Below, piece by piece: positions 26,992 to 45,856 of a stretch of DNA of 45,856 nucleotides; position 1 is the first letter of the stretch; the number at the start of each line of letters is the position of its first letter. The position numbers and the translations under genes were made by a program. The stretch covers positions 1 to 45,856 of the forward strand of contig DASRKF010000142.1 of the NCBI GenBank assembly GCA_035649095.1, in the 5' to 3' direction. Under the pieces are notes generated by a model. It was not told where the DNA came from and searched no databases. It saw only the letters and a program-made list of their open reading frames with translations. The DNA comes from Candidatus Deferrimicrobium sp. (lineage in GTDB: Bacteria > Caldisericota > Caldisericia > Cryosericales > Cryosericaceae).

Positions 26992-27066
26992 TGGTTGCGA
27001 CAATTAGAGTCGGGACATTTGACATTAAGTCGGGACATTTGACATTAAGTTGGGTAATTGATGATG
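26992..27066 (+). mobile_element. Putative transposon terminus (type L) at the island border, with tandem 20-bp sites
   Basis: TGGTTGCGACAATTAGAGTCG, then AGTCGGGACATTTGACATTA twice exactly (27008-27047), then AGTTGGGTAATTGATGA; homologous to 38702 and 41580. Confidence 0.6.
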
Positions 27067-27366
27067 TCCGCAGTGATGAAATGAGCTTCAGTATCGCCCC
27101 CCGACACTTATTACATCAGTGTCTGCGGCCGCGATGACGTCGCCGATCCGAAGTGTCCAGAGTGTCGCTCCCCTCCCGTCTCTCTTGTTTGGCCTCTCCC
27201 CGTGGCTACAATTCGTTGATGATGCTACACTACTAGAGGAAAGGGCGGCGCGACTGCCTTGATAACTACGCCGAAGGGGAGCATGAACTATGATCGAGCA
27301 TACACGAACCTTCACGACCAATCTTACGGCGGGGAATGGCACTAACTAGAACAGAAGAGGTGCAGG

Positions 27367-28557
27367 ATGCCAAACGGCAATTTGTCTCACGCAAAGAACG
27401 CCAAGAATGACGAGTTTTACACACAATGGGGCGACATTGAGCGGGAAGTACAGACATATTTAGAATATGACCCCGATGTTTTTCGTGGAAAGACCATTCT
27501 ATGTCCCTGTGATGACCCCGAATGGAGCAATTTTACAAAGTTTTTTGCCTTGCATTTTCATGAGTACGGGTTGAAGAAGCTTATCTCGACAAGTTATGCT
27601 GTTGAGAGTAAGACCTATAAAGCTGGTTACCAGCCCTCGCTGTTTGAGAAAAACGATCCGAAATTCAACAAGGACAAAACCCTGACGCACGGCAAACTTT
27701 TCGTGCTGGACAGACAGGACGTGAACTGTGACGGCAAAATCAACATCGAAGACCTGAAGTGGGATTACCTATCGGGTGACGGTGACTTTAGAAGCAAAGA
27801 GGTACGAAAGCTGCGGGACGAGGCGGATGTGATTATTACCAACCCGCCGTTTTCTCTTTTCCGTGAGTTTGTGGCGTGGATTATGGAGGCGCAAAAGCAG
27901 TTTCTCATTATCGGGAGCCTGAACGCCATTACCTACAAGGAAGTGTTTCCACTGATCAAGGAGAACAAGAGTTGGTTAGGTAATAATTGTAAAGTTAATG
28001 GCGGCGCAATGTTTTATGAAATACCAGAAGGCATTGCTAACTTGGATCAAGTTCGTGAAATAAGGACAAACGAAGTCGGCAAGAAAGTTTATATTACCAG
28101 AGTACAAGGTGTTCGTTGGTTCACCAATCTTGACCACGGGCGTCGCCACCAACCCTTGTTGTCTATGAACACAGCAGACAACTTGAAGTTCAGCAAGCAC
28201 AAGGAAATCAAGGGCAAGAAGGCATATGATCACTATGACAACTATAATGCGATCGAAGTACCATTTGTCGATGCGATCCCTTCCGATTATGATGGCGTCA
28301 TGGGTGTGCCGATCAGTTTTCTTGACAAATATTGTCCGGAGCAGTTTGAGATTTTAGGAGTTGAATTTGGGTTCATTTTTATGAGCTTAGAAGGTGCCAA
28401 AGGTCTTTCTGAGCAATTTGTAAAGGATTATTATGCGCAAGGTGGAACAGGTAGCTATTCAGTAAATCATCCAATTTTAGGATATTACCAAGAAGGCAAA
28501 GCGAAAATTCCGTTTAAACGTATACTTATTCGAAAAAGAAAGGCGGTGGCTAAATGA
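27367..28557 (+). CDS. Adenine-specific DNA methyltransferase, EcoRI-methylase family
   Basis: [62 protein letters not shown]. Confidence 0.92.
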
Positions 28558-29732
28558 ACACCATACTTAAAAAATATACTGTTCGTGAGTTAGTGGAGGG
28601 TTTCATCTACAACGAGCTGGAAGGCAAAGGGCTGTTCGGGTTGTCCGGCAAGCTGACGATCCAGCCGGAATATCAGCGGAATTACATCTATTGCGAAGAG
28701 AAGAAAGAGGGCGCTGTCATTGAATCACTGCTCAAGGGTTATCCTTTGGGACTGATCTATTTCAACGATGTGGATGACGAGCATTTTGAGGTACTGGACG
28801 GGCAGCAACGGATCACTTCGATCGGGCGTTTTGTCACAGGCAAGTTTGCCATCAATGACGAAAATGGAAATCGACAGATCATGGGTCCGGAACCTTCTCT
28901 TTCTCCTGAAAAACAGACAAAGATCTTGGACAGCGAGCTTCTGGTTTATCACTGCAAGGGCGAGGAAAGCGAGATCAAGAACTGGTTCAGAACGATCAAC
29001 ATAGTAGGGATCCCCCTTAATGACCAGGAGTTGTTAAACGCGATCTACTCCGGACCATTTGTGACGCTGGCAAAAGCTGAGTTCAGCAATTCTCAAAACG
29101 CAAACGTAGAAAAATGGAACGCTTATATCAAAGGCTCAGCACGAAGACAAGACTTCCTGGCAACTGCTTTATCCTGGGTTGCCGCTTCTAAGGGACAAAC
29201 CGCAGAAGAGTATATGGCAACGCACCGGAAGGGAAAAAACGTTGACGAGCTGAAAACCTATTTTACCACTGTGATCGACTGGATTTCAGGAATATTCCGC
29301 GCTACCGAAAACGAGATGCGTGGGTTGGAGTGGGGACGGTTGTATAAGATCTATCATGGGCTGTCGTTTGATCCGGCAAACATATCCGAGAGAGTTCAAA
29401 AGCTGTACGCCGATCCCTATGTAAAAAATCGTCGAGGGATCTTCGAGTATATCATGGGTGGTGAAACGGAGACTAAACTGCTCGAGATCCGTGTTTTTGA
29501 CGAAGCGACAAAGAGAGCTGTTTATGAGCAACAGACCACTGATGCAAAAAGCAGGGGCATTTCAAACTGCCCTCTGTGCGCTCTTGGTCCTGATGCAAAC
29601 AAAAACAAGATATGGGAACTGGAAGAAATGGACGCTGATCATGTGACAGCCTGGAGCAAGGACGGTGCTTCCGATATTCATAATTGCCAGTTGCTCTGCA
29701 GAACGCATAATCGAGCAAAGGGGAATAAGTAG
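28554..29732 (+). CDS. DUF262 (GmrS/ParB-like) + HNH endonuclease
   Basis: [24 protein letters not shown]...PL; C-terminal CPLC...DADH...[13 protein letters not shown]; follows directly on the methylase stop. Confidence 0.92.
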
Positions 29733-30352
29733 CGAATGAAGAAATGAAATACGGTATTGTGTCAGAACGGCGAGTACGAAGATTACCAAGGAACCGTAGC
29801 ACTGTTTTGGCACGAACTGTCATCTAAATAGCGTTTCGGCAGAGCCAGTGCGGCTCCTGCGTCGTGTTGCCTGTTGCCGACAAGCGAGGTGCGGGGCAAT
29901 GTCCAAGACTGCGCCGGATTTCTCGCGTTACTCCCGTCCTTGTCGAAGAGCTTTCGTCAACTCTCCTTTCCACCGATCGCCGCCCAGCCTCCGCACGACA
30001 TCCTCCGCCGGCTCATGGCGTTACAATGCGTCGACGGCTCCTGCCGTTCCACCGCACTACACAGAACTGCACCTGTGGTTCTGGGCGGCGTGCGGGATAG
30101 ATCCGAGGATACTACCATGCTCTTGTATTGCCCGTTCAAGCGACTAGTGTTAAGATTGAATTTGCTTTCTGACCAAGAGATGCTGCGACTTTGACGGGCG
30201 ATGGAGGGCAGGGTGCATGGACATGGTTACAAACACATTCATTGATCGACCACTCAAACCGAGACACTCCGTTACGACCCTGTATCCTATGGATTTCAGC
30301 ACAACCGTCTGCACTCGGCGTGTCGTTGTCCCGTTAGTAATGGAGAGTCATC

Positions 30353-33300
30353 TTGGTTACTGAAGATCCAACAACCTTTGAGCTGCTCGTTCCGTCATCG
30401 GCCGATGAGTTCGAGGAACTCTGTCTCGATCTCTGGGAAAGGATCTGGACAGATCCGAATATCCAGCGTCTGGGCGTTTCCGGGCAGGGGCAACATGGAA
30501 TTGACATCTACTCTCGTGTTCCAGGAAATACGGGCAAACACAGAGTCATCCAATGTAAGAAATACTGGCGCACCAGGCTGACACCGAAAAGGATAGACGT
30601 CATTGTATCGGACGTGCTGGAGTCGCCGCTAATGCCGATTTCGGAGCTGATCATCGCTACAACCCAACCGGGCAATGCACGCATCCAGGAGTACGTAGCG
30701 GCGATAGCACGGACGAATGTCGCTGCAGGGCTGTTCGACGTCCACATCTTCTCATGGAACAACATCTGCTCGCTGCTTCGGAATTATCCGGAAGTGCTTC
30801 GGTTGCACTACAAGGACATGTTTGGTCTCTCAGCTGCTAACGCGTCTCTCGCCATCGGCGACATACTTCTCGATGAAGTCAAACAAAGACTCGCAGATCG
30901 CAAGTTCAGCGAAGCGCTGCACATTCTTGATGCATTTGTCCAGAAACAGCAAGTGATGGACAACAATACGCGATTCCGCGTCCTTACAAACAAGGGTGTC
31001 ATCCTCTCGATGATCGGGAGGAATGCGGAAGCAGCAGAGAACTTACTGCAAGCCTACACATTTAACAAGACAAGCGAGATTGCCGGCACCAATGCAGCGC
31101 AAGCGTCTCTGATGACAGGTGACCGCAGAACAGCGACCAGGATCGCCAAAAGCGTCATCAAGATGGCCCCCGGCAATACTCTCGCGTACAGAGTGCTCGT
31201 TCTGGCGACAGCAACCTTCTCCAAGGCGAAATCTCTGGTAAGCAGGCTCTCCAATCCCATTCATCAGTCTGGTGATGTCCTTTTCGCACTTGGCCTAGTC
31301 GCGCAAAGGGAATCGGACTGGGACAACGCTGCAGACTGTTTTCAGAAAAGCCTTGACGCTTATGGTCACGTAGATGCCATGACGTGCGCATTTCTGGCCG
31401 TGGCGATCATGCAGAAGATACGACACGAATCGGAGCGCGATCCGGAGCTCACTGATAGTCCGACGATGCGAGCTGCAACCGAGCGAGCACAGCAATTGCT
31501 TTCGACCGCTATCGAGAACCCCAGCCAGGTGCCAGAGGAACTACTGTCTTCCTGCTACAGCAATCGCTGCCATGCCCACATATGGCTTGGCGACATCGAG
31601 GGCGCTGCACGAGATGCTGATACCTTCACGAAAATGTCTCCAGACCTCCCGGCCAACAAGAAGCTGATGGCGACTATTCTGTATATGAGACACGACATTA
31701 ACGGCGCTATTCAGGCTCTGCGTTCCATCGCAGACTACCGTGACACCCCTGACGCTCTGGACATGTTGGCTCGTCTGCTGGACTCGCAACAACGATACCA
31801 GGAGGCACTGGATGCGATGGATCAGGTCTTAGATCTGCCGGAGAAACCGTCCCTAATGGCTACCTCGGCCAAGCACTTCCGAATACACCTTCTTCTGAAA
31901 CTCAACAGAACCGGCGATGCGCGCGGCTATGCGGACGAACTCCTCTCCAATGATCCTAACAATCCCCTCTGGATGATCGACGTCTGCTTATGTCTTCGCG
32001 CCGCTGGAGCAGACAGCCATGAATCGTCTCTTCAGACAACACTTGAGAAGGTGGTGACGCTCACAACATCTGAGGCACCTCCCATTGTCCGCGATGAGAT
32101 TTCGGAAACGATGGGAACCATTTCAAGGCTCGACCTGAGTATTGAGATTGACAAGATTGGATTCGCTGGAGATGTGTATAACACGCGCTCGAGAAGGTTG
32201 CTCCATGGCTACCTGACGCTCGGCCGCTTCGCTGACGCCAAGAGCCTGTGCGATACCCTGGTGCGGGCTGGCGTTCAGAGAAGTGAAGTGTACTGGTACC
32301 GAGCCCAGTTGAACACTCGTTCTGGTAATCTGGACGCAGCAGAAGCTGATCTCCAGGCATGCCTCATCCAGACAAGCCATGACGGAGCATCAAGCGAGCA
32401 CACTGAAATTGTCTTGCTCCTAGCAGAAGTGCAGCTGGAAAACCAGCATTCCGCTGACGCTCTCGGGTCGATGGCAACCATCAAGGACCTGCCTAGTCTG
32501 ACGTCGCCCCAGTTCGATCGACTCGTCGGCCTCTGGATCAGGCTGAAGGAGTACACGCGTGCTCTCGACGCGGCATACGCAAGACTTCTTGATCCGACGC
32601 ACGGAACAGAGCCTGAGACGTTTCAGACCTATATACGATGCTTTCTGACCATCGACCGTGTCGCTCCAGAAGTCCTTGAACCAGAAGACGTGGTTGGCCA
32701 GAACAGTGCAGTACTTCTGGAACTCTCTCCCGGTGAGCAGGTCTGGTACTTGCCGGACCCAGTGAGGAGAACTCGGATGGGTAACGCCGTCTTCCTGCTT
32801 CCCGGCGACCGACTCTGGCAGAGTCTGTTGGGCAAAAAAGCTGGCGACACGGGCAAGATGGGATCCATTCTCCAAATCGCAGGCCGACACGCTGCCATAA
32901 TTAACGAAGCCTTCACGTCCTATGTGCGACAGTTCCCAGACAGGAACGATCTGGAGCGGGTGCCTCTTACCGCTCCAAACGACTCGACCAGCATTTCCGA
33001 GCAATTCAAGGCGCATATTGCAGACGCGGCGTCATTCGGAGCACACGTCAGAAGAATCTTGACTGCCCAGAGAGAAGGCCAGATACCGTTCTCGCAGGTT
33101 TCGCATGTACTCAGTCATAACCCCGTTGAGTTGTTCCAGGAGATCGCCGCCACTCCCGGGGAGTATGTTCTGGCCGTGCTCCCGGGGACTCCGCCACAGC
33201 CATGTAACGATTCCGTTGCAGCACTTGTTGTTGACCCGCTCACTTCCCTCACGCTGGCTGGCATTCCTGCATTCAGCAACGGTGTCGCTGGGCAATGGTC

Positions 33301-34135
33301 CATCGTCTATACACGGGCAACTCTGGATGTGCTTATGGAAGCCTCCGCAGAGCTCAAGGCATACATCAAACACGGAATGAAATCACTCGTATCTCTTGAC
33401 GGGAAACACTTTACCATTACGACGGTAAGTCCGGAAATCGTCCAGCAAAGGCAGCTGCAGGTTGAGCGCACCATCGCATGGCTCCAAGGATATGCATCGC
33501 TCACACCGTGCAGCCTCATACTCCAATACGGTGAAGATAAATATCAGCAAGCGATTTCGGTTCTTGGCAGGGCGGAGGTGGAGGCAATTGCCCTGGCACA
33601 GGAACCACGTCACGCGCTGCTTTCGGACGAACTCGTGCTGCGAACTGTAGCAAGGTCAGAAGGGGCGATGTCATTCTCTACTCAAGATATCCTGCTGTGG
33701 GCTCGCGAAGAGAACTTGTTGTCTCAGCCGGATTACGCAGCAGGACTCTTTGAGCTCTATCAGAATCACATGCGCGGCGTTTACTGTGATGTTCAGACTG
33801 TCGCCACGCTCTGCGACTCGGTGGAGTGGAATGCAAAGCTTCTGCCCAACAACCTCCTTGGGGTTCTGTCTACTGACAACGCCGGCAGTGCCGGTCCAAG
33901 CATCGCTGGCAAACTAGCGCACCAGATATTCATGAACGTCCAGGATGGTCCCGTGCGCTGCAGCGAGTGGTGGCCGGTGCTGCTCGGTGCGGTAGCAAGC
34001 GGCCGCAAGGCAGCCCAAGCCTTCCAAGCCATGATGAAATCAATGGATACAGAGTTCCATCATGTGGTGACTCTGGCGACAAGCGAGTTGGGAGGAATGG
34101 CAGCAATTTGGCTTAAGACCCACATAGCGAGCTAG
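30353..34135 (+). CDS. Mrr-like PD-(D/E)xK nuclease - TPR - GreA/B-C-like - PIN multidomain protein (candidate defence protein)
   Basis: N-terminal FEELCLDLW...GQGQHGIDI...IQCKKY; many TPR-like helices; LWQSLLGKKAGD; C-terminal LVVDPLT...AEVEAIALA...LLSDELVLR; TTG start after GGAGAG. Confidence 0.8.
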   Translation: MVTEDPTTFELLVPSSADEFEELCLDLWERIWTDPNIQRLGVSGQGQHGIDIYSRVPGNTGKHRVIQCKKYWRTRLTPKRIDVIVSDVLESPLMPISELIIATTQPGNARIQEYVAAIARTNVAAGLFDVHIFSWNNICSLLRNYPEVLRLHYKDMFGLSAANASLAIGDILLDEVKQRLADRKFSEALHILDAFVQKQQVMDNNTRFRVLTNKGVILSMIGRNAEAAENLLQAYTFNKTSEIAGTNAAQASLMTGDRRTATRIAKSVIKMAPGNTLAYRVLVLATATFSKAKSLVSRLSNPIHQSGDVLFALGLVAQRESDWDNAADCFQKSLDAYGHVDAMTCAFLAVAIMQKIRHESERDPELTDSPTMRAATERAQQLLSTAIENPSQVPEELLSSCYSNRCHAHIWLGDIEGAARDADTFTKMSPDLPANKKLMATILYMRHDINGAIQALRSIADYRDTPDALDMLARLLDSQQRYQEALDAMDQVLDLPEKPSLMATSAKHFRIHLLLKLNRTGDARGYADELLSNDPNNPLWMIDVCLCLRAAGADSHESSLQTTLEKVVTLTTSEAPPIVRDEISETMGTISRLDLSIEIDKIGFAGDVYNTRSRRLLHGYLTLGRFADAKSLCDTLVRAGVQRSEVYWYRAQLNTRSGNLDAAEADLQACLIQTSHDGASSEHTEIVLLLAEVQLENQHSADALGSMATIKDLPSLTSPQFDRLVGLWIRLKEYTRALDAAYARLLDPTHGTEPETFQTYIRCFLTIDRVAPEVLEPEDVVGQNSAVLLELSPGEQVWYLPDPVRRTRMGNAVFLLPGDRLWQSLLGKKAGDTGKMGSILQIAGRHAAIINEAFTSYVRQFPDRNDLERVPLTAPNDSTSISEQFKAHIADAASFGAHVRRILTAQREGQIPFSQVSHVLSHNPVELFQEIAATPGEYVLAVLPGTPPQPCNDSVAALVVDPLTSLTLAGIPAFSNGVAGQWSIVYTRATLDVLMEASAELKAYIKHGMKSLVSLDGKHFTITTVSPEIVQQRQLQVERTIAWLQGYASLTPCSLILQYGEDKYQQAISVLGRAEVEAIALAQEPRHALLSDELVLRTVARSEGAMSFSTQDILLWAREENLLSQPDYAAGLFELYQNHMRGVYCDVQTVATLCDSVEWNAKLLPNNLLGVLSTDNAGSAGPSIAGKLAHQIFMNVQDGPVRCSEWWPVLLGAVASGRKAAQAFQAMMKSMDTEFHHVVTLATSELGGMAAIWLKTHIAS

Positions 34136-34754: not shown

Positions 34755-36044
34755 ATGAAAAGGACTCTGTCAGTCTTCGTTCCAGTATGCCTCGTCTTGT
34801 CACTGTTTGCGGGGACCTTCGTATGTGTACCTTCCGCAAGGGCCGCAGACACTTACAAGTGGACCCTTGTAAGCGACATCTTCACGAACATGGACGTATG
34901 TTCTATCGCCGTCAATCCAAAGAGCCCGAGCATTATCTATTCTGGGAGGTTTGGAGTATCCAAATCAACGAATGGAGGAAGATCCTGGAACACAATTGGG
35001 CTTGCGAACTTCTCCATGGTAGATGGTCTTGCTGTCGACCCGAAAAACCCCAATGTCATCTACGCAGGAACGGAAGCCGGAGTGTGGAAGACTACGAATG
35101 GTGGATCAGGATGGGAGCAGGCTGGCCTCGCCGATTCCTACGTGAGTGCTCTTGCAATTGATCCAGCAGACACCAACACAGTCTACGCAGGCGCAATAGA
35201 GCATCTCTACAAGTCAACCAATGGCGGTTCAAGTTGGACGGCCATCGAGGGACCGTCCCTCATCAACGCTATTGCTGTTGACCCCAAGAACTCGAAGAAT
35301 ATCTACATAGGGAGCCAGCTCTGGTCCGGTGGTGGTTTGTTCAGATCAGCGGATGGCGGAAACAAGTGGGTTACAATCGGCTTTGCCAAACGCTCTGTAA
35401 CTTGTGTTGTGATCAACCCCACAAGTTCGAGCTCTATCTACGTTGGGATATTCGATGGCGGGGTATACAAGTCGACGAATAGCGGCTCTTCCTGGAGCGC
35501 CATCAACAATGGACTCACGAGTCTGGATGTCATATCTCTCGCCATTGCTCCCGGAACGCCTCAGACAATCTATGCGGGGACGTCCAGCGGCGGAATATTC
35601 AAACTTCAGATAGACAGCAGCGAGACGACTCCTCCGCCTTCAACTCCTGTGGTCAGGAAAGTAATCCAATTGACGATTGGAAATCGCACTATGCGCACAA
35701 ACGGAAAATCTACCATTCTTGAAGCAGCTCCCGTCATCTTGAATTCGCGCACATTTCTTCCCATAAGAGCAGTTGTCGAGGCCGCCGGAGGAACCATCGC
35801 CTGGGAAGCGGCTGCGCAGAAGGTCACGATTGTCCGGAAACGTACGACACTGAGCCTGTGGATCGGCAAGAACACCGCAAACCTCAACGGCAAATCGGTC
35901 AAGATTGACACAAATGCCAAGGTCGTACCTATCATTGTGAGCGGCAGGACGCTTCTTCCACTTCGTTTTGTCGCGGAAGCACTTGCGCTGGATGTCGGAT
36001 GGGACTCGAAGACTCAGGTGATAACGATAACGTATACATCATAG
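34755..36044 (+). CDS. Secreted BNR-repeat beta-propeller protein with copper amine oxidase N-terminal (stalk) domain
   Basis: Signal peptide ending ARA; repeats AVDPKNP..IYAG..KSTNGG.SW; C-terminal RTFLPIRAV / RTLLPLRFVAE. Confidence 0.9.
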   Translation: MKRTLSVFVPVCLVLSLFAGTFVCVPSARAADTYKWTLVSDIFTNMDVCSIAVNPKSPSIIYSGRFGVSKSTNGGRSWNTIGLANFSMVDGLAVDPKNPNVIYAGTEAGVWKTTNGGSGWEQAGLADSYVSALAIDPADTNTVYAGAIEHLYKSTNGGSSWTAIEGPSLINAIAVDPKNSKNIYIGSQLWSGGGLFRSADGGNKWVTIGFAKRSVTCVVINPTSSSSIYVGIFDGGVYKSTNSGSSWSAINNGLTSLDVISLAIAPGTPQTIYAGTSSGGIFKLQIDSSETTPPPSTPVVRKVIQLTIGNRTMRTNGKSTILEAAPVILNSRTFLPIRAVVEAAGGTIAWEAAAQKVTIVRKRTTLSLWIGKNTANLNGKSVKIDTNAKVVPIIVSGRTLLPLRFVAEALALDVGWDSKTQVITITYTS

Positions 36045-36090: not shown

Positions 36091-36116
36091 CCATACCCCT
36101 TCCGTTACATGTTTGC

Positions 36117-36326
36117 TTTCCCTGATTCATTCCCCAAAACCCGGGCTCATTTCCAAATTCCCCGATTCGCGGCCAATCTTGCGGATTCGCGATGACACCG
36201 CTGTCTGACTCGCTCTTCTGCTATTTCGGTTCTGAGACGCCCCGTTCCTCCGTCATCAAGGGGACCAAATCATCAGCAACGTGGCGATATGGAGATGTTG
36301 TGTAGTTCTGGGGACCCTGGCCAACC
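36117..36326 (+). repeat. ~200-bp intergenic repeat (subterminal region of type R end), truncated copy
   Basis: Colinear with 38438-38646 and 45011-45170, e.g. CCGATTCGyGGCCAA..TGyCGGATTyGyGrTGACrC. Confidence 0.85.
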
Positions 36327-36496: not shown

Positions 36497-36551
36497 TGTC
36501 ATAATGACCAATGATTTGGCTCTTGCTTTTATGACAACGACAGCATATACT
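36497..36551 (+). promoter_or_regulatory. Promoter and probable XRE operator
   Basis: TTGCTT-N17-TATACT; inverted pair TGTCATAA (36497) and TTATGACA (36529). Confidence 0.6.
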
Positions 36552-36575
36552 GCTTTCGCAAGGGGAGGTGTGGCC

Positions 36576-36929
36576 ATGAACAAAACGCAAGCTGATGTTG
36601 GCGCAACAATAAAGTCACTCCGCGAAAGAAGCGGATTTACGCAAGACAACATTGCCCGCTATTTGCAGGTGGATCAGAGTTTCATTTCGAAGTTTGAGTC
36701 ACGTGAAAGGGCTCTGAGTGCCGGGTTGCTCGAAAAACTGGCTACTTTGTTTGGTGTTGATTTGTCAGTGTTCAGTGAAGGTGCCTGTAACATGAAACCG
36801 CTGTCGCTTGCACTTAGAGCAAGTGAAATCAATGAAGAGGATCTGGAAACCATTAGTGCCATCAACAGGATTGCATTGAACGGAGACTTTATGACAAGGC
36901 TGCTCAAGGGCGGTTGTGGTAATGAATGA
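36576..36929 (+). CDS. XRE-family HTH transcriptional regulator
   Basis: IKSLRERSGFTQDNIARYLQVDQSFISKFES; GGAGGTG RBS. Confidence 0.9.
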   Translation: MNKTQADVGATIKSLRERSGFTQDNIARYLQVDQSFISKFESRERALSAGLLEKLATLFGVDLSVFSEGACNMKPLSLALRASEINEEDLETISAINRIALNGDFMTRLLKGGCGNE

Positions 36930-37686
36930 AGTGGATTCATGGAAGAGAGCTGTCTGGTTACGCAAGCTGCTTGGCGAAGATACATCATCTCGTATCGATA
37001 TATTCCCATTGATAGTCGCGAACATTGAGCGCTCAAAGCACTTTACGATGGTGTTTTATCCAATGGGCGATAGATTGAGCGGGATGTGCGTCAAAGGAAC
37101 TGGCAGTACAGTCATCGCGATCAACTCTGCCATGTCTGTTGGCAGGCAGCATTTTTCCATGGCGCATGAATTGTTTCATGTGTATTTCGATGATAACTTG
37201 TCAACGGCAATTTGTTCCCAGAAGATCGGCGGCGGCAACGAAGTCGAAAGAGAAGCCGACCAGTTTGCTTCGTATTTCTTGGTGCCGCCTGATGCGTTGA
37301 CAGCAGCAATTGCACGGGTCAAGCAAAAAGTCGATGACAAACTGACTGTTGGCAATGTTGTGGAGCTCGAACAGTACTTTTGGGTCAGCAGGCAAGCTAT
37401 GCTGTTCCGATTACTTGAAGAGAACGAACTCACCAGCCAAGAAGCAGAACCCATGAGGCGTGGCGTCATCAACTCTGCCCGCAATCTGGGGTATGACGAT
37501 TCTCTGTACAAGCCGCTACCACTGGAAAAACAGCACGCGACCTACGGTTATTACATCCAGCAAGCAGAAGAAAGCTTGAAAGAGGGGTTGATTTCGAACG
37601 GCAAGTACGAAGAGCTATTGCTAGAGGCTTTCAGATCTGACCTTGTCTATGGTGAAGCGTCAGAGGGGAGCGAATCAGTTGACTGA
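36922..37686 (+). CDS. ImmA/IrrE (COG2856) zinc metallopeptidase
   Basis: LSGMC, INS...GRQHFSMAHELFH, EREADQFASYFLVP, FWVSRQAM. Confidence 0.92.
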   Translation: MNEVDSWKRAVWLRKLLGEDTSSRIDIFPLIVANIERSKHFTMVFYPMGDRLSGMCVKGTGSTVIAINSAMSVGRQHFSMAHELFHVYFDDNLSTAICSQKIGGGNEVEREADQFASYFLVPPDALTAAIARVKQKVDDKLTVGNVVELEQYFWVSRQAMLFRLLEENELTSQEAEPMRRGVINSARNLGYDDSLYKPLPLEKQHATYGYYIQQAEESLKEGLISNGKYEELLLEAFRSDLVYGEASEGSESVD

Positions 37687-38215
37687 TTTACTCTTCTTCG
37701 ATACTGACTGTTTGTCAGCATTCCTGTGGGTCGGCAAAGAAAGTCTATTAACTAGACTCTATCCAGGACGAGTCGTGATACCTGAACAGGTATATGACGA
37801 ACTGTCCTATCCGGGACTTCCATCATTCAACATCACAATAGATACGCTATTCGCGCAAAAACAAGTTGTTATCGAAGCAATAAAGGCTGGTACTGAAGCC
37901 TATGATCTATATTACACTTTGTCGAGAGTCCCTTCCAAGGGGCACGTTGTTATCGGGAAAGGTGAAGCAGCTTGCATTGCCTTGGCAAAAACCACTGGGG
38001 GTATCGTCGCAAGTAATAATCTGAAGGACATCTCCTCGTACATAGAAGAGTTTGGTTTGAAACACGTGACAACCGGCGATATCCTGGTTGAAGCCTATGA
38101 AGGGAAACATATCACAGAAGATGAGGGGAATACTATCTGGGCGGGCATGCGACGTAAGGGTCGCCAAATTGGAGCAGAGACATTCTCAGAATACTTGGTG
38201 TCAAAGTATACATGA
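37679..38215 (+). CDS. PIN-domain nuclease (putative toxin)
   Basis: FFDTDCLS, IPEQVYDEL, GKGEAACIALA, ASNNLKD; TTG start after GAGGGGAG, overlapping the upstream stop. Confidence 0.85.
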   Translation: MTDLLFFDTDCLSAFLWVGKESLLTRLYPGRVVIPEQVYDELSYPGLPSFNITIDTLFAQKQVVIEAIKAGTEAYDLYYTLSRVPSKGHVVIGKGEAACIALAKTTGGIVASNNLKDISSYIEEFGLKHVTTGDILVEAYEGKHITEDEGNTIWAGMRRKGRQIGAETFSEYLVSKYT

Positions 38216-38255
38216 TCTTCTGCGAACAGACCATTTTCTCCCTCGCTGTTTCAAG

Positions 38256-38350
38256 TGACTGCGACAAATAAAGTCGATGCATTTCAAATGCCCTACGCAA
38301 CTATGTGATTTGCGAACGTGGGACTACAGGATTCTAACGTAAGAAGCGTT
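38256..38350 (+). mobile_element. Internally deleted mini-element (L-end start fused to a degenerate R end)
   Basis: TGACTGCGACAAATAAAGTCG...CGCAACTATGTGATTTGC...ACTACAGGATTCT. Confidence 0.4.
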
Positions 38351-38437
38351 TGCAAGACAAGATCGTTGAGAGAGAGCTTGTATCAACGTTCTTGACTCTA
38401 CAACTTCGGACCTTCAATTGGCATGGATTCGCCCCGT

Positions 38438-38696
38438 GTTTTCCTGGTTCGTTCCCCAAGAACCGGGTTCATTGCCAAATTCTCCGATTCGTGGCCAAAT
38501 TGTCGGATTTGCGATGACGCCGCTGTCTGACTGACACTTCTGCCGTTTGAGCTCTGAGATGCCCCATTCTCCCTCCATCGAGTCGACAAGATCATCAGCA
38601 ACGTGTCGGCAGAGAAATGTCGTGTTATCCTGGAGACCCCAACCAACCATGCGGGTTGGCGATCACGAGATTACACAACTCTATTTACGGCCACCA
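38438..38696 (+). mobile_element. Putative transposon terminus (type R), most complete copy
   Basis: ~200-bp repeat followed by CAACCATGCGGGTT...ATTACACAACTCTATTTACGGCCACCA; the reverse complement TGGTGGCCGTAAATAGAGTTGTGTAAT matches the L ends. Confidence 0.6.
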
Positions 38697-38701
38697 ACGA
38701 T

Positions 38702-38757
38702 TGGGCGCGACAAATAGAGTCGTGGAATCCGACACTGGAGTCGTGTAATTGATGACG
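38702..38757 (+). mobile_element. Putative transposon terminus (type L)
   Basis: TGGGCGCGACAAATAGAGTCGTGGAATCCGACACTGGAGTCGTGTAATTGATGAC, 5 bp after the R end. Confidence 0.6.
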
Positions 38758-38956: not shown

Positions 38957-39055
38957 TGTCGGAATATGTCCATGGCATACTCATGTCTCGGAATTGTTCG
39001 CAGTTCGCATCTGTGTTATCGAAGAGAGACCCTCTCAACTACTCCCATAGCGTTT

Positions 39056-40108
39056 CTATTGTCCTATCTTTTTGATGTACTTCGTGCTCCGCGCGCCGCC
39101 GGTCTTCGTGATCTTGCCGTTTCTAACCATCCTTCCCAGGGCCGCTTCAATGGTCGTCGGGCTGATGTCCGGGAAAAAGTCTGAGATCTCCTTTTTGGAG
39201 ATGGGCTTTATGCTGCGCAGAACTGCGGCTTCTATCCTTTTCGCCTTGGTCGCGTACTTTCCCTGAACGATATCGAAACGTTCATTCAATTTCCTGTAAC
39301 AGATTAGCAGCGTCGTCAGGAAGTTTTCCATGAACGGGAAATAGGAGTTCTCACTCGTGTGCCAGTCTTTCGAAGACATCCTCAACGCTTCGTAGTATTG
39401 AGATTTTGCGCTGTTGATCTGCTCCTCGAACGACACGTATTTTCCCGCGTCGAATCCGCTCTTGTACAGCATCAGCAGGGACAGCAGGCGCGATATGCGT
39501 CCGTTGCCGTCCGTGAACGGGTGAATGCAGAGGAAGTCCAGAACAAAGCATGGAGTGAGCAGAAGGCTATTGATGGAACTGTCGCTGCAAGCGGACATGT
39601 ATGCCAGGTTCAGCCGTTCCATTGCTGCCGGCGTCTCCGCTGCAGCAACCGGCGTGAAGCGGATGTGCCTCGCGCCAAACGTATCTGTTTCCATGATCAC
39701 GTTGTCGGACCCCTTGTAGGCGCCTCCGCCCTGCGGGGCATACGAGAGCATGGTCCTGTGCAGTCCCAGGATGATCGGGCTGTTGATCTCCATTGTCGGG
39801 TAATTGCTGTGGACAAGGCCGAGAGCGTCGCGGTATCCCACGATCTCCATCTCGTCGTGGTTCAGCGGAGCAGTGTTCCCGTTGACGATCTCCCTGATCC
39901 GCTGGTCGGTCGTGACGATCCCCTCGATGGCGTTGGATCCCTTCACGGACGCTACTCTGGCGATCTGCTCAAGGCTGCTGAGCATGTCCGGGAATAGGTC
40001 CACGCGCCCTGATTCCATTGCCTTTATCTCTCTGATCGCTCCCGCCAGGTTGGCGATGCTTGCCGGCACCATGCCCTGTCCAAGGAACGTATAGTCGAAT
40101 CTCCTCAT
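39056..40108 (-). CDS. Fic family protein with inhibitory helix and C-terminal wHTH
   Basis: Canonical HPFTDGNGRISR motif; SNAIEG (S/T)xxxE(G/N) motif; C-terminal ISKKEI...TTIEAALGRMV..GKI.K.GG. Confidence 0.95.
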   Translation of the reverse strand: MRRFDYTFLGQGMVPASIANLAGAIREIKAMESGRVDLFPDMLSSLEQIARVASVKGSNAIEGIVTTDQRIREIVNGNTAPLNHDEMEIVGYRDALGLVHSNYPTMEINSPIILGLHRTMLSYAPQGGGAYKGSDNVIMETDTFGARHIRFTPVAAAETPAAMERLNLAYMSACSDSSINSLLLTPCFVLDFLCIHPFTDGNGRISRLLSLLMLYKSGFDAGKYVSFEEQINSAKSQYYEALRMSSKDWHTSENSYFPFMENFLTTLLICYRKLNERFDIVQGKYATKAKRIEAAVLRSIKPISKKEISDFFPDISPTTIEAALGRMVRNGKITKTGGARSTKYIKKIGQ

Positions 40109-40203
40109 ATCTGCACCTCTGTCTCGCTATCTGCATACATGTTAGCACATTATGTGCAGATTGCTATGTGTTTCTGCATATGAATGAGGCAAATATGTGC
40201 AGT
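40108..40203. promoter_or_regulatory. Operator-like array upstream of fic
   Basis: Half-site at 40110; TCTGCAT-N17-GTGCAGA at 40130-40160; TCTGCAT-N17-GTGCAGT at 40173-40203. Confidence 0.65.
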
Positions 40204-40214
40204 ATCGTACGGTT

Positions 40215-40339
40215 TCGAGAGACAAGATTGAAGAATCCCAAAATGCCGGTCTTGGCAGGGATGTTGTGTAATTCTGAGCCCCCACGCAACCATGCGGGTT
40301 TGCAGACACGGAATTACAGGACTCCAATTGCAGAAACCA
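40215..40339 (+). mobile_element. Putative transposon terminus (type R), partial
   Basis: GACAAGAT...GATGTTGTGTAATTCTG...CAACCATGCGGGTTTGC...AATTACAGGACTCCAATTGCAGAAACCA. Confidence 0.55.
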
Positions 40340-40478
40340 CAAGAAGAGGATTGTCTGTGAAAAGAGCACGGGCGGTCCTCTCCTTTCTAGCCACTTTCAG
40401 TGTTCACGATCGCTAGCTATACTCTCCTGTGTGGAGATGTTACAACGCGCTTGCTTGCTAGATGCATGAAAGGAATAC

Positions 40479-40940
40479 ATGCTTGTTGAATGCCCGAACT
40501 GCCATGAGCTGTACGACAATGCTGTTGATGATGCATGTCCAAGATGCACCGTCGCGCACAAGATCGTCTGTCCCAAGTGCGGCAACACATATTCTCCTTC
40601 ATTCGCAAAATGCCCATATTGCGGTGTCAATAACGACGCGTTCGTCCCAGTGCCAGCTGCAACGCTTCTCTATCCGAGCGTTATGTATATCGATGGCGTA
40701 GGCAAGGACAGAAGAACAGCTGCCATGCTCGCTCTCCTTCTCGGTGGTTTCGGCATACACGAGTTCTACCTTGGAAATACAAGAGCTGGAATCTTCATGC
40801 TGCTTTTCTCCTGGACCGGTATTCCGAGCGCAATTGCTATCGGACAGGGTGTCCATTATCTAAGAATGACGGACGATGCCTTTGTTCAAATGATGAAGGT
40901 TATGCGCCAAAACGAGGAGCTCCGCAAATCCATTCGTTAA
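40479..40940 (+). CDS. TM2 (NINE) domain membrane protein with N-terminal zinc ribbons
   Basis: Four CxxC pairs; KDRRTAAMLALLLGGFGIHEFYLG...LLFSWTGIP. Confidence 0.88.
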   Translation: MLVECPNCHELYDNAVDDACPRCTVAHKIVCPKCGNTYSPSFAKCPYCGVNNDAFVPVPAATLLYPSVMYIDGVGKDRRTAAMLALLLGGFGIHEFYLGNTRAGIFMLLFSWTGIPSAIAIGQGVHYLRMTDDAFVQMMKVMRQNEELRKSIR

Positions 40941-41013
40941 AAGGGAAGTTGTATTCTATAAACGGACGGACTCTCGGTGCCTATGAGTAGGACTAAACAA
41001 GTGGAGGCTCAGT

Positions 41014-41562
41014 ATGCCATTGAAAGAGATTGATAAACGGCGAGGATTTACCTTTCTGGAATCCGGCCCGGTCGTGCTGGTTTCCACCAACGACCATGGC
41101 AAGAACAACGTGATGACGATTTCCTGGCACATGGTGATGGACTTCACCCCGCACATTGCCATTTCCACCGGCCCGTGGAACCACTCTTTTCATACCATGC
41201 TGGAAACAAAAGAATGCGTCATCAATGTTCCTACGGTTGAAATGCTGGAGACTGTGGTACGCATCGGCATGGTTTCCGGTACAGAAGTGGACAAGTTTGA
41301 AAAGTTCCATCTGACCGCACTTCCGGCAAAAGATGTGAGGGCACCGCTGATCGGCGAATGCCTTGCCGCTCTGGAATGCAAGGTCGTCGACTATGTGGAA
41401 AAACACGGCCTCGTCATACTGGAAGCAACTCGCGTCTGGTACAACCAACGGAAGAAGGAGAAGAGAGTCTGCCATGCCATTGGAAATGGCAGTTTCTGCG
41501 TCGACGGCGAGATCATTGACTACCGCAGCTTGATGGAAAAGAAGGTGCCTGACGGGGTATGA
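41014..41562 (+). CDS. Flavin reductase family protein
   Basis: GPVVLVST, NNVMTISW, ECVINVP, SGTEVDKF, APLIGECLAALECKV. Confidence 0.9.
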   Translation: MPLKEIDKRRGFTFLESGPVVLVSTNDHGKNNVMTISWHMVMDFTPHIAISTGPWNHSFHTMLETKECVINVPTVEMLETVVRIGMVSGTEVDKFEKFHLTALPAKDVRAPLIGECLAALECKVVDYVEKHGLVILEATRVWYNQRKKEKRVCHAIGNGSFCVDGEIIDYRSLMEKKVPDGV

Positions 41563-41579
41563 TACAAAATCCCACGCGG

Positions 41580-41636
41580 TGGGTGCGGCAAAAAGAGTCG
41601 TGTAATTTGACAATATGTCGTGTAATTGATGACGGC
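41580..41636 (+). mobile_element. Putative transposon terminus (type L)
   Basis: TGGGTGCGGCAAAAAGAGTCGTGTAATTTGACAATATGTCGTGTAATTGATGAC. Confidence 0.6.
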
Positions 41637-41664
41637 ACACTGGGTCCAGCTCCGCTACCCTTGG

Positions 41665-41850
41665 CTGTCGCCGGTTAGTCAAAACATCACTACCGTATTA
41701 TATTTGTTGTAGAAGGTACGATCGTGCTGCGACGCCGCAACGATACGGCGCGCTGATGGCGCTGGTGTTTAGTTACCAGTCCAACGCCCTTGTTGAAGGA
41801 AGGCACGCGTTGGAGGTATACAACATGACAACAACCAAGGCACGAAATCA
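41665..41850 (+). repeat. Shared promoter/leader/start module, copy 1
   Basis: Identical 24-mer CTGTCGCCGGTTAGTCAAAACATC, then colinear similarity to 45195-45370 through TAyGAT, GAAGGCACGyGTTGGAGG and the first codons. Confidence 0.85.
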
Positions 41851-44488
41851 CTCACTCGCTACGACCATCATGGTTCTAGCTCTGTGTCTCTCGCTAAGTC
41901 TCTCGGGTGTTCTGGTTCACACTCCTCTCGTGAAAGCGGCAGATGCCAACGCCTGGAAACAGCTTCCGATGTATGATGGCGGCGTCTCCATTCTTGCCGT
42001 TGATCCCGTCCATTCTTCCACCCTGTACGCTACCACGGCAGAAGGCTTGTTCCGCTCCAAAGACAGCGGTGCGACCTGGGCGGCGATAAACGGAAGATTC
42101 TCCAGTGTGCCGGACTATTTCGGCATTGTTTCCGATTTCAGCAACATGACTTGCTTTGCCATTAACCCGAAATCCCCCTCTACGATGTTTGCTGGCACAA
42201 GTGAAGGCCTATTTCGAACCATTGACGGTGGTACAACCTGGACGGCGTGCGGCACAATTCCTGCTCAGACAGCTCAACCGGGCGTTGAGTCCGTTGCCAT
42301 AGATCCCCTCACTCCAGCCACCCTGTACGTTGCTACCGGCTATGGTGTCTTCCGCTCTGCCAACAACGGTGGCACATGGAAAAGCATGAATACCAGCCTG
42401 ACAAAAAGCGGCGTCAAGTCTCTTGTCATCAATCCAAAGACCCCCACCACGCTGTACGTCATAGCTAACTACAATGGCGTCCTCAGATCTACGGACAGCG
42501 GCGCTACGTGGACGGCGATAAACACCGGTCTCACCGGCTACGATGCGACTTCTCTTGCCATCGACCCCCGGACCCCTACAATTTTGTACACTGGCAGTAC
42601 TGCAAACGTTGCCAATTCACAAGATCGCCTCTTCAACTCCGTGGATGGCGGCAATACCTGGAAATCGTTGCACTTCGGCCGAGGTAACTGGATTTCGTCC
42701 TTCTGTCTCGCCATCAGTCCCAAGGCTCCTGCCACTGCGTATGCCAGTACCAACGACCTCGGCGTTTTTCGATCCACAGACAACGGTAGTACATGGAGTG
42801 GTATAAACAGCGGGCTTACCAACAGAGTGGTCAACTCCATTGCCATTGATCCAAAGTTGCCGACAAGATTATACATCGGCACCAATGCCGGCCTTTTCCG
42901 TTCCACCAACAGCGGCACCACCTGGGCCAAAGTAAGTTTTCCAGTAGTTCTTACTGGCGGGAAGAGGGTTGGAGATCTTGTCGTCGATCCCATCACTCCC
43001 TCCATCATGTATCAGAATTGCGTCAATGGCGTTCTCTATTCCCACGATAGCGGCATGACATGGCACACGGCGAGCTCAACGTCCGCCATTGGCTCTGTCA
43101 GCCATATCGCCATCGACCCAAAGACTCCCACTATTCTCTATGCGTGCACTGCAAAAGAAGTCTTCCGATCGAACAACAGTGGGTCGACTTGGACGAAGAA
43201 AACAACGTTCAAGACCGTCTATGAGATTCTGATCATTGTCGTCGATCCAGTCACTCCGGCAACCTTGTATGTCTATGTTGACGGTGCAGATGCCGCCAGC
43301 GGTGTCTACCGTTCCAAGGACAGCGGCGACCACTGGACTGCCATGAACAACGGCTTCGACCACAAATACCGATTCCAGTCTTTGACCATCAATCCTGTCA
43401 TTCATACGACGCTGTATCTCAGTGATGGCTCCTTCTATCGCTCAACAGACAGCGGCGACCACTGGACCCTGATGCCCATCAAGATAGGACCGGAAGGTGG
43501 GGACGGTGTTATCGCACTGGCGATCAATCCAGCAAATCCTTCGATCATGTATGCAGCCTCTGCCTATACCTACTATCAGCAAACATTGTGCCGAATCCTG
43601 CGTTCCACCGACGGTGGCAGCACGTGGACTGTAGCCCTTGCTGCCGGCGATGCGCTCCTTGGCATCGACCTTTACGCCATTGTCCTTGACCCCGCAACGC
43701 CAACGACCGTCTACGCTGCCGGCGATACCGGCGTCATCCGCTCGACGGACGGTGGGGCCAATTGGACGGACACCGGTCTCCATCAAGGAGTTACGTCCCT
43801 TGTCGTTAACTCGGCTACTGCTACTTTATATGCCTGCACCTGGCACGGCGTGTTCAGCTACAACATGTCCTCATCCCATACCTTGACGGCCGTGACATCC
43901 CCTTCTGCGGGAGGGTCCGTCGTCAGGTCCCCCGATGCGGTTTCCTACACAGCCGGAACAGCGGCTACTCTCACCGCCACTCCTGCCACGGGCTATTCCT
44001 TCACCGGATGGTCAGGGGACCTGTCTGGCATGAAGAATCCCGAAACCATCACGATGGACACCGACAAGACAGTCACTGCCTCCTTTGTCATGGACACGGG
44101 AAGCGTCATGAAGCTGACGCTCGGGAGCAAGATGATCTCGGTAGACGGAAAGCAAGTGCCAATCGACGCAGGCCCCGCCATCTTCAACTCACGCACCTTC
44201 ATCCCCATACGGATAATCACTGAAGTCTTTGGAGGAAGCATCGCCTGGGATGCGGCGCAGCAGAAGGTCACTGTTGTGAGGAACGGCATGACAGTGAACC
44301 TGTGGATCGGAAAGAACGCTGCAGAGATAGACGGCAAGTCGGTCAGCATCGACACCAATCCCGCTGTTGTACCGGTCATATCGTACGGGAGGACTCTCCT
44401 CCCTCTCCGGTTCGTCTCGGAGTCGCTTGGGCTGGATATTCAATGGGATGGGACCGCGCACACGATCACGATAACGCGGAAGTCGTAG
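41825..44488 (+). CDS. Secreted multi-BNR beta-propeller protein with InlB B-like repeat and stalk (copper amine oxidase N) domain
   Basis: Signal peptide ending VKA; many AIDP.TP.TLY...RSTD.G.TW repeats; LTATPATGYSFTGWSGD; RTFIPIR / RTLLPLRFVSE. Confidence 0.92.
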   Translation: MTTTKARNHSLATTIMVLALCLSLSLSGVLVHTPLVKAADANAWKQLPMYDGGVSILAVDPVHSSTLYATTAEGLFRSKDSGATWAAINGRFSSVPDYFGIVSDFSNMTCFAINPKSPSTMFAGTSEGLFRTIDGGTTWTACGTIPAQTAQPGVESVAIDPLTPATLYVATGYGVFRSANNGGTWKSMNTSLTKSGVKSLVINPKTPTTLYVIANYNGVLRSTDSGATWTAINTGLTGYDATSLAIDPRTPTILYTGSTANVANSQDRLFNSVDGGNTWKSLHFGRGNWISSFCLAISPKAPATAYASTNDLGVFRSTDNGSTWSGINSGLTNRVVNSIAIDPKLPTRLYIGTNAGLFRSTNSGTTWAKVSFPVVLTGGKRVGDLVVDPITPSIMYQNCVNGVLYSHDSGMTWHTASSTSAIGSVSHIAIDPKTPTILYACTAKEVFRSNNSGSTWTKKTTFKTVYEILIIVVDPVTPATLYVYVDGADAASGVYRSKDSGDHWTAMNNGFDHKYRFQSLTINPVIHTTLYLSDGSFYRSTDSGDHWTLMPIKIGPEGGDGVIALAINPANPSIMYAASAYTYYQQTLCRILRSTDGGSTWTVALAAGDALLGIDLYAIVLDPATPTTVYAAGDTGVIRSTDGGANWTDTGLHQGVTSLVVNSATATLYACTWHGVFSYNMSSSHTLTAVTSPSAGGSVVRSPDAVSYTAGTAATLTATPATGYSFTGWSGDLSGMKNPETITMDTDKTVTASFVMDTGSVMKLTLGSKMISVDGKQVPIDAGPAIFNSRTFIPIRIITEVFGGSIAWDAAQQKVTVVRNGMTVNLWIGKNAAEIDGKSVSIDTNPAVVPVISYGRTLLPLRFVSESLGLDIQWDGTAHTITITRKS

Positions 44489-44515
44489 GATCTTCAGGCA
44501 ATAGGAGAAGACCAC

Positions 44516-45001
44516 ATGAGAACAGTGTCAAAACGAGCGCTTCTATCGGCGCTGTGCGTTGTAGTCATAGCCGCAGTTGTTCTGGTCGTGATCGTCACAC
44601 TCAACAAGACTCAATATCGGAACGCTCAGTATGGTTTCTACGTTTCGCTGCCATCGACATGGAAAGGGTACTCCGTCATTGACCAAACGTGGACGGGGTA
44701 TACGAACGGGGCAAACGGCCAAGTGGCGAGTGAGCACGGGCCTGAGATCCTCATCAGGCATCCGGCCTGGACGACCAAAGATCCACGCCAGGATATTCCC
44801 GTCATAGTCTTCACGCTCGCTCAGTGGAATGCAGTTCAGCAGGAGAAGTTCTACATCAGCGCTGCACCGATAGGACCAAGCGAGCTTGGACGCAACAGCA
44901 CCTATGTATTCGGGCTGCCGCCGAGGTACAACTATGCCTACATCACAGGCTGGGAAGAGGTAGACAAGATCCTGCAAGGACATTCATTTCACGCCTTCTA
45001 A
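44516..45001 (+). CDS. Hypothetical exported/membrane-anchored protein
   Basis: GGAG RBS; N-terminal TM helix; YRNAQYGFYVSLPSTWKG. Confidence 0.8.
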   Translation: MRTVSKRALLSALCVVVIAAVVLVVIVTLNKTQYRNAQYGFYVSLPSTWKGYSVIDQTWTGYTNGANGQVASEHGPEILIRHPAWTTKDPRQDIPVIVFTLAQWNAVQQEKFYISAAPIGPSELGRNSTYVFGLPPRYNYAYITGWEEVDKILQGHSFHAF

Positions 45002-45010
45002 TCCAGACAT

Positions 45011-45170
45011 CCGGTTCTTTCTCTAATTTCCCGATTCGCGGCCAACTTGCCGGATTTGTGGTGACACAGCTGCTGAAGTGACGTTTCTGTCACTTTCAGC
45101 CACAGACCTCCCTCCGTTTGTCATCAACCCGACCGAGTCGTCAGCGTTTTCTGTGATGGCAATATGTTGG
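45011..45170 (+). repeat. ~200-bp intergenic repeat, third (truncated) copy
   Basis: AATTTCCCGATTCGCGGCCAACTTGCCGGATTTGTGGTGACAC..., colinear with 36117 and 38438. Confidence 0.8.
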
Positions 45171-45194
45171 CTCAGTCAACGTCCGCACATCACC

Positions 45195-45370
45195 CTGTCG
45201 CCGGTTAGTCAAAACATCGCCACAGCGTTACACTTGTGGTGGAGGGTATGATCTCCGCTGCGACGTCGTATGGATACCACGCGATGACGGCTCTAGTGAC
45301 CGTTTCAGTCCACCGCTCTCGTCGAAGGCACGTGTTGGAGGCGCATAGCATGGAGACAACGAAATCACGA
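45195..45370 (+). repeat. Shared promoter/leader/start module, copy 2
   Basis: Colinear with 41665-41850. Confidence 0.85.
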
Positions 45371-45856
45371 TCCTCTTCAAAGATTATCACATTCCTGAGC
45401 ATCCTGCTTGCCATAGTCCTTCTGGTAGGCTGCGCACCAAGAACCACTGGGACAGTCGATGTTCTTGTTGGAGATGACCTGACGACCCAAATCGTGGAGG
45501 GAGGAGCTATATCTCTATATGGAGGAGACGTTCCCATCTCTATCTCGAAGGGAACGTACACGGCTAACTTCTCTGCCACAGTGAAAGTAGTGTCAGTAGA
45601 TGACACCAGGATGATTGCCGCGGAGATTACTTTACCAACGACCACCGTCGGCCAAGACCCCGGTAACGTCGTAGTGTATCTCTATCTCTGTCAGCCCATC
45701 TCAACCACAGCAGACAAGCTTCCCGACGGTACAATAGGCTACAAAGGCCAAGGGTATCCACAGATCATCACTGGGAAGTCGTATTACGTAGTCGGAGTTC
45801 TCCAACCTGGCTGGCAGGACCATCCTCTAGTGTATATCCCCACTGCTGCTGAGTTC
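45350..45856 (+). CDS. Hypothetical lipoprotein, partial (runs off the window end)
   Basis: TTGGAGG RBS; METTKSRSSSKIITFLSILLAIVLLVGC lipobox; frame open to the end. Not in the ORF track. Confidence 0.85.
   Translation, partial: METTKSRSSSKIITFLSILLAIVLLVGCAPRTTGTVDVLVGDDLTTQIVEGGAISLYGGDVPISISKGTYTANFSATVKVVSVDDTRMIAAEITLPTTTVGQDPGNVVVYLYLCQPISTTADKLPDGTIGYKGQGYPQIITGKSYYVVGVLQPGWQDHPLVYIPTAAEF

Follow-up and report, generated by a model that had tools for sequence, protein, structure and literature searches.

What assembled the island of defence and surface-protein genes that fills the right part (26992 to 45856) of contig DASRKF010000142.1? The contig, whose whole length of 45,856 nucleotides is called the window here, comes from a genome deposited as Candidatus Deferrimicrobium sp. 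and is compared below within the genus Candidatus (Ca.) Cryosericum, represented by 23 genomes including this one (22 others), all of them incomplete (61–97%). An earlier sequence-only reading took the island for a stack of decayed or non-autonomous elements with TGG ends, inserted serially at one site in the manner of Tn7. The stack itself is supported by target duplications and by a pair of filled and empty sites; the single Tn7-like site is not, since several promoters are hit and the duplications are mostly of 4 bp. The repeated ends are almost certainly transposon ends, and the island has probably grown through promoter-guided serial stacking of cassettes by a DDE enzyme acting in trans; an undescribed DDE family whose enzyme is missing is its likely source.

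In the mechanism we propose, the cassettes, which are non-autonomous units with TGG...CCA ends and 4-bp duplications, would have been brought in successively by a DDE transposase acting in trans. The transposase would choose targets slightly upstream of the -35 box in some of the predicted sigma70 promoters, with the left (L) end of the cassette promoter-ward, and RNA polymerase or a promoter-bound regulator would position the transpososome. Each newcomer would land between the promoter and the older element, so that the spacer between its right (R) end and the next L end would equal the duplication length plus a wobble in position, and deletion and recombination between the repeated ends would later scramble the L/R partners.

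Ends, target duplications and spacers

An L end consists of TGG, about 7 variable bases and then two to six direct sites at 20–21 bp spacing. In an R end, TGG and an outer site are followed by about 40 bp in which the AACCCGCAT motif is conserved, then by an inner site in inverted orientation and a conserved interior of about 250 bp. The inner site reads like an L site in every R end, and inner and outer sites covary between subfamilies; one protein may well bind both, which would fit their covariation. T, G and G stand at the tip in 75, 72 and 73 of 76 end-like 30-mers, a set preselected by a TGG-like filter, and the inverted TG...CA termini were also recovered in a scan made without that filter. 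The sites come in at least three variants, called type A (AGAGTCGTGTAAT), type B (AAAGTACTGGTAT) and type C, which are mixed within arrays, and these subfamilies would reflect several transposase variants. In genome G005 the same TGGGGTCAAACGTTACA stands behind both an MFS transporter promoter (L157) and a tetR promoter (L295) and is possibly a fourth end subfamily.

The six ends claimed by the sequence-only reading were used to build a 30-bp matrix, on which they score 36–43 bits; ends outside this training set, on contig C120 of the same genome, score 44 and 39 bits, and the maximum in two shuffled genomes is 22. By this measure the L ends at 26992, 38702 and 41580 hold, as do the R ends finishing CCA at 38696 and 40339, while the proposed L end at 38256 aligns instead with the inverted inner site of a decayed R end, 85–12 bp from the R tip; this is the degenerate R end of that reading, at about 38263–38345. 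The repeated sites of about 20 bp that it described are found as two or three per L end, at 20–21 bp (27003/27023/27043; 38713/38734). Its switch from GC-rich genes to AT-richer cargo at the first end is equally plain, with a GC content of 59.5% before it (1–26991), 46.9% just after (26992–30000) and 51.4% across the whole island.

The cleanest target duplication is that of a solitary element (L070:4634-7299, and likewise L089), which has ATGC next to its L end and again next to its R end; the homologous site on contig C6 of the genome under study is empty and has one ATGC. In 4 of the 12 leading L/first-R pairs of arrays the two flanks agree in 4 or more bases, compared with 4 of 132 non-cognate pairings (about 3e-4 by our own binomial estimate), the shared bases being TTCC (G003), TAGC (L067), ATGG (L071) and, for a type-B element, the 5-bp GTTGG (G008). 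A 4-bp duplication is thus present in four independent type-A cases and one of 5 bp in a single type-B case; G003, L067 and L071 rule out both a duplication always of 5 bp and a reading with GG tips and 6-bp duplications. The duplication extends into the older L tip in L071 and G008 and stops 1 bp short of it in L067, indicating that the newcomer sits between the promoter and the older element. The empty C6 site lies inside an integrated element that encodes a large serine recombinase and a Prim-Pol protein (the gene of the latter is split in this genome); in other strains this element has received the cassette, and it is a possible vehicle between cells.

The 25 distinct R-L spacers measure 0 bp (one case), 1 (three), 2 (two), 3 (six), 4 (four), 5 (seven), 7 (one) and 8 bp (one), with a mean of 3.64 bp (standard error 0.38). 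This range fits serial insertion, in which a 4-bp stagger with 1–2 bp of wobble gives a mean near 4. Ends are co-oriented in 128 of 135 cases, the listed exceptions being mostly type-B R ends misclassified as L; in another exception two R ends stand tip to tip in opposite orientation (L237:10377-10540, G020:C7). Contigs from four public runs have R-L joints with other spacers, which may come from the arrays of other strains and are not taken as circles.

Insertion upstream of predicted promoters

The island begins next to an MFS transporter gene of the host (25633..26907, minus strand; Pfam MFS_1; present in 19 of the 23 genomes) that is transcribed away from it. Between them lies a landmark kept across genomes (26932..26974, minus strand) that contains a predicted promoter, as are all those of the MFS, tetR and gntR loci discussed here: its -35-like box is TTGACG (26973–26968, minus strand), its -10 candidates are TATACT (15-bp spacer) and TACTGT (17-bp spacer), and it overlaps the palindrome TGTAAC-N4-GTTACA (26932–26947). 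A variable gap of 17 bp (26975..26991), which in relatives often holds stumps of older ends, separates the landmark from the leading L end, of type A (26992..27058, plus strand), with its TGG tip and three direct sites. Of the three near matches to this palindrome in the genome, the one here alone is perfect, and it is likely the operator of the neighbouring ChrB_N protein, whose gene follows the MFS gene (listed at 25070–26071).

This arrangement recurs. Of 18 MFS upstream regions, 13 have an L end at most 31 bp from the conserved GTCAA, which reads TTGAC on the MFS strand; four are without an end and one lacks the anchor; a random 40-nucleotide window contains GTCAA 4% of the time. Type-A ends lie 17 bp (five cases), 18, 18, 19 and 20 bp from it, one more has the landmark partly lost, and other data in the same analysis add two cases at 17 bp; types B and C are found at 20, 24 and 31 bp, with stumps at 0–4 bp. 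In one public-run contig 17 foreign letters, starting like the tip of an insertion sequence (IS), stand between the landmark and the L end, indicating that distance sets the site and local sequence does not.

Other promoters are used in the same way. A tetR survey, in which 19 of 25 returned loci were taken in and partial matches dropped, comprises 17 tetR loci and two paralogous promoters. Four clear and two weak L-type ends lie 3–19 bp past the box at the tetR loci, and the other 11 are empty with their sequence conserved, so that ends do mark presence/absence breakpoints between strains, as had been foreseen; one clear and one weak end lie at 13 bp in the paralogues. A gntR-ABC promoter has a stack of tip stumps 23, 31 and 38 bp away in G020 and an end 31 bp away in G014. 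MFS, tetR, tetR-type paralogue and gntR promoters all have insertions in a set orientation on the upstream side of a -35-like box, C6 being the exception. A palindrome overlaps each of the MFS, tetR and gntR promoters, and the operons behind them contain a regulator; a bound regulator, or selection, may add specificity.

We note that an abundant ISNCY family in these genomes, related to ISLbi1 (about 35% identity, below NCBIfam cut-offs), has several copies 4–10 bp upstream of TTGAC-like boxes, with a 6-bp duplication in one copy (G000:C134 (L001), G000:C32, L116, L121, L101, and the MFS promoter of G015 (L159)); promoter-upstream targeting by this group may be undescribed.

Several observations weigh against promoter-guided stacking. 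The C6 site, for all its clean duplication, has no -35-like box on the L side; the MFS landmark was not recognised by a promoter scanner (0 sites); a -35 box is missing upstream of many internal L ends; and among the 235 TTGAC-N16-19-TAnnnT sites of the genome a single one has an above-threshold end on its upstream side, so that a -35 box alone fails to explain the choice of site. The spacers peak at 3 and 5 bp and not sharply at 4 bp, whereas serial insertion predicts a sharper peak. Eight of the 12 leading L/R pairs fail to share a duplication, and the other pairs, inside arrays, match at two bases or fewer in 15 of 15 cases, so that scrambling has to be assumed. We read these failures as later deletion and exchange between repeated ends, which would fit them; the same R end and downstream gene stand behind different upstream cargo in G000, G001 and G004, which fits such exchange. 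Lastly, no transposase lies beside any end in the arrays and loci examined, so that the ends nowhere bracket one as the sequence-only reading had hoped, and the searches below for Tn7- and IS21-type proteins and at rve loci count on the same side.

The enzyme and competing explanations

No transposase was detected in the window, as had been stated from the outset: a Pfam scan of its 24 open reading frames (ORFs) found none, and tblastn with 13 transposition-protein queries gave no match on the contig. In the whole genome, tblastn with TnsA, TnsB, TnsC, TnsD and IstA found no match, TniQ gave none either (with an uninformative control), IstB gave no strong match, and rve, DDE_Tnp_1, serine recombinase and home-made DDE profiles yielded no cognate enzyme. 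Across the genus, the Tn7 TnsB query matched 0 of the 23 incomplete genomes (no positive control rang), the rve loci inspected are without these ends, a Mu-transpos_C search produced no enzyme (control silent), and an AAA_22 search returned general ATPases only, among the matches listed. IstB is present at E<=1e-12 in 2 of 23 genomes, both times with unrelated ends. PF06782 (UPF0236), which we take to be the marker family of ISLre2, matches none of the 23, its control being silent too. When 520 island ORFs were grouped into 240 clusters, a Pfam scan of 40 representatives found no transposase. The ISLbi1-like, IS1202-like and IS21 transposases that reside in the same genomes are out as the cognate enzyme, having different ends of their own. 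With silent controls and genomes of this completeness the absence of the enzyme is unproven; the TG...CA ends and the duplications suggest that it would be of the DDE class.

One competing explanation, which we think unlikely, is that an IS21-like or other copy-out-paste-in transposase attacks beside its own ends, the MFS promoter mimicking an R-end site and the spacers being remnants of circle junctions. IS21 ends are multi-repeat with terminal CA (PMC10122671; this and the other papers cited are drawn on in part), insertions inside older ends are common here, and a 16-mer of the MFS landmark does match the site in R orientation, at a score of 0.8 bits (among the top 0.018% of positions) and with a virtual spacer of 7 bp. 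However, 695 positions in the genome score as high as this mimic, no mimic is evident by eye at tetR or gntR, and G003 and G020, whose mimics are poor (about -12 bits), still have insertions at 17 bp. In G003, moreover, the newcomer lies 13 bp from the older end yet at the usual 17 bp from the landmark, and the two IS21 elements in the genus have different ends.

That a true Tn7-family element (TnsABC with TniQ/TnsD or Cas) stacked the cassettes at sequence-defined attachment sites is quite improbable, even though the right end of Tn7 in R721 (8.6 bits by the end matrix) has a similar tip-plus-site layout and a site spacing like the 20–21 bp seen here, a 5-bp duplication flanks one type-B element and Tn7-like elements typically carry defence cargo (PMC8649781). 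The Tn7 ends score 5.0 and 8.6 bits, below the genome background of about 15; Tn7 sites are all direct, where the R end here has an inverted one; and the four type-A duplications are of 4 bp, whereas Tn7-like elements have 5 bp (GTGCG in R721) and TGT/ACA ends (PMC11014353). At least four unrelated promoter sequences are used, and the queries of this genome and of the 23 found no tns genes, no positive control having rung.

An integron-like array, with the R-spacer-L junction as the recombination site of a site-specific recombinase, would account for cassettes stacked in one orientation behind a leading promoter region with no enzyme on them, but is very hard to sustain. A site-specific recombinase with a fixed overlap is incompatible with target duplications and with spacers that vary, here from 0 to 8 bp; IntI, attI and fixed cores are not found and the neighbouring gene is an MFS transporter; and the sole tyrosine recombinase of this genome is an Xer-like gene outside the island, as in all 5 relatives tested. 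That the repeats are transcription-factor operators is scarcely credible: some L ends do precede a promoter-like leader, but the filled and empty pair largely refutes the idea, all 9 top site matches in the genome fall in ends on two island contigs, and the sites go together with TGG tips and duplications and are missing from empty alleles.

Promoter-guided stacking could be part of something larger, which we put forward tentatively and as somewhat more doubtful than not: an undescribed DDE family, lacking target immunity, that combines Tn7-like multi-site ends with insertion guided by RNA polymerase or a regulator to the upstream side of -35 boxes, and whose enzyme-less cassettes form a transposase-driven analogue of the integron, with L ends that supply a promoter and with the defence and surface repertoires of Cryosericum renewed. 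In its boldest form the enzyme would be kept by the host and not carried between the ends. If true, promoter targeting would have been solved independently in a second lineage, one with Tn7/IS21-style ends and 4-bp duplications; this would open a new way of studying how transposases read promoters, and might offer a compact site-directed integrator. Stacking would account for the hypervariable anti-phage and surface-protein islands of this small-genome permafrost-soil bacterium.

Contents of the island, its relatives and known systems

Pfam scans of the 24 ORFs, with PADLOC for some genes, uphold the earlier description of the cargo as defence and surface-protein genes (features are on the plus strand unless marked minus). 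Behind the leading L end come a type II methyltransferase and a GmrSD/HNH restriction enzyme (27367..29732; Pfam; PADLOC MTase_II, REase_II), and then a 1260-amino-acid TPR protein with a PIN domain (30353..34135; TPR-GreAB-C-PIN type) and a weak Mrr-like match at its N-terminus, likely a defence protein. A BNR/sortilin and copper-amine-oxidase-N surface protein (34755..36044) is followed by a truncated R end (36116..36325, minus) that blastn and pairwise alignment to the C120 R end show to have kept the interior and inner site and lost the last 49 bp. Next are a helix-turn-helix protein, an IrrE/M78 peptidase and a 190-amino-acid unknown protein (36504..38215; CapH/CapP-like matches), the decayed R end with its inverted inner site (38263..38345, minus), and a complete R end (38428..38696, minus) made up of about 260 bp of conserved interior, the inner inverted site (38613–38628), a spacer of about 40 bp with the AACCCGCAT motif, the outer site and the CCA tip at 38696. 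The 5-bp spacer ACGAT (38697..38701) joins it to the two-site L end at 38702..38750, which precedes a SoFic-like Fic protein (39056..40108, minus; Pfam, PADLOC) and an R end of about 85 bp with its CCA tip at 40339 (40255..40339, minus). A zinc-ribbon/TM2 protein and a flavin-reductase-like protein (40479..41562; Pfam) then lead to an orphan L end (41580..41630) that has no R tip before it.

The interior of this last end (41665..41845) holds a predicted inward promoter (TTAGTC...TATATT, about 41675–41704), a leader and the ribosome-binding site of the next gene, which encodes a 910-amino-acid surface protein with BNR/sortilin, InlB-B-repeat and copper-amine-oxidase-N domains (41756..44488; Pfam). 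Such interiors recur behind L ends across loci, and the repeat of about 170 bp ahead of many lipoprotein and surface genes is this same L-end interior; some L ends are thus predicted to carry an inward promoter that would drive cargo expression. Beyond an internal R-end fragment (45019..45145, minus) a second copy of the promoter and leader, with its tip lost, precedes a lipoprotein-like gene (45195..45370). The sequence-only reading had overlooked both copies, as well as the R remnants at 36116–36325 and 45019–45145. Further copies of the repeat are on contigs C44, C120, C229 and C149 of this genome, the first, third and fourth of which also have decayed type-B/C ends, and the set of paralogous lipoproteins and surface proteins that it precedes is large (126 ORFs in one cluster).

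The ends are largely confined to the genus. Models of the R end match 15 of its 22 other genomes, against 3 weak matches in 70 genomes outside it (E 5e-4 to 5e-3), and blastn with the junction finds matches in 12 of the 22 and in 0 of 18 from other families; six of the seven R-pattern records are titled Ca. Cryosericum or Caldiserica. A metagenome scan gave 23 loci, and the end patterns have no match in viral contigs or in plasmids; a match in Prevotella (L096) was rejected as a palindrome without TGG tips. The Prim-Pol query has no match in viral contigs, and an Rfam scan gave no credible match. Anti-phage systems in related loci include restriction-modification, CBASS (cyclic-oligonucleotide-based anti-phage signalling system), AbiE and TIR-STAND-type genes: six related arrays (L050 = G008:C140, L076, L046, L054, L070, L240) contain CBASS (SMODS, SAVED-HNH), type III restriction-modification and AbiEii pairs, together with a TIR-STAND protein, PglZ and many unknown ORFs that are candidates for new defence genes. 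We also note an 815-amino-acid ORF (L065:2238-4685, G004:C40) that by eye resembles a reverse transcriptase fused to Cas1; it is surrounded by CRISPR-associated genes and lies upstream of the MFS region.

Searches of the open-access literature found no account of these elements. Islands of this sort ordinarily have defence cargo (PMC8649781). Promoter-upstream targeting is described, in the part of the source used here, for Mutator-like transposases only, with a mechanism that is proposed there and not shown (PMC3942029). These p-MULT elements (the ISLre2/TnGBS and ISKra4 group) insert in one orientation at a fixed short distance, 15–17 bp for TnGBS, upstream of sigma70/sigmaA promoters, and their asymmetric ends are a further likeness (PMC3942029). 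They have single inverted repeats of 18–39 bp, a terminal C and 8–9-bp duplications, whereas the cassettes here have TGG tips (terminal T), multi-site ends and 4(–5)-bp duplications, and are stacked without a transposase.

Tn7 and Tn7-like elements (Tn6022/AbaR islands) also have ends with several sites, spaced about 20 bp apart after a short tip; they too insert in one orientation at a set distance, build nested and tandem islands and carry defence cargo (PMC11014353, PMC8649781). They differ in their TGT tips (as in the R721 Tn7, against TGG...CCA here), a 5-bp duplication, sites that are all direct (here two to six direct in L and two inverted in R), tnsABC and TniQ on the element, target immunity, and attachment sites set by gene sequence. 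IS21 (IstA/IstB) is alike in its terminal CA, repeated transposase sites and activity on tandem elements (PMC10122671). It requires IstB, and its copies in the genus have other ends. We know of no promoter targeting by IS21. The IS1202 family (ISAjo2 group) has a helper-free TnsB-like transposase and an additional binding site inside the element; it inserts in one orientation, at a set distance from the site of a host protein, and makes 3–5-bp duplications (PMC10132070). Its ends are TGT and its targets dif/XerC, in contrast to the TGG ends and promoter-region targets seen here, and the one IS1202-type element in the genus (G007) has unrelated TGT ends; by analogy, IS1202 would nevertheless be the best model for an enzyme guided by a host protein.

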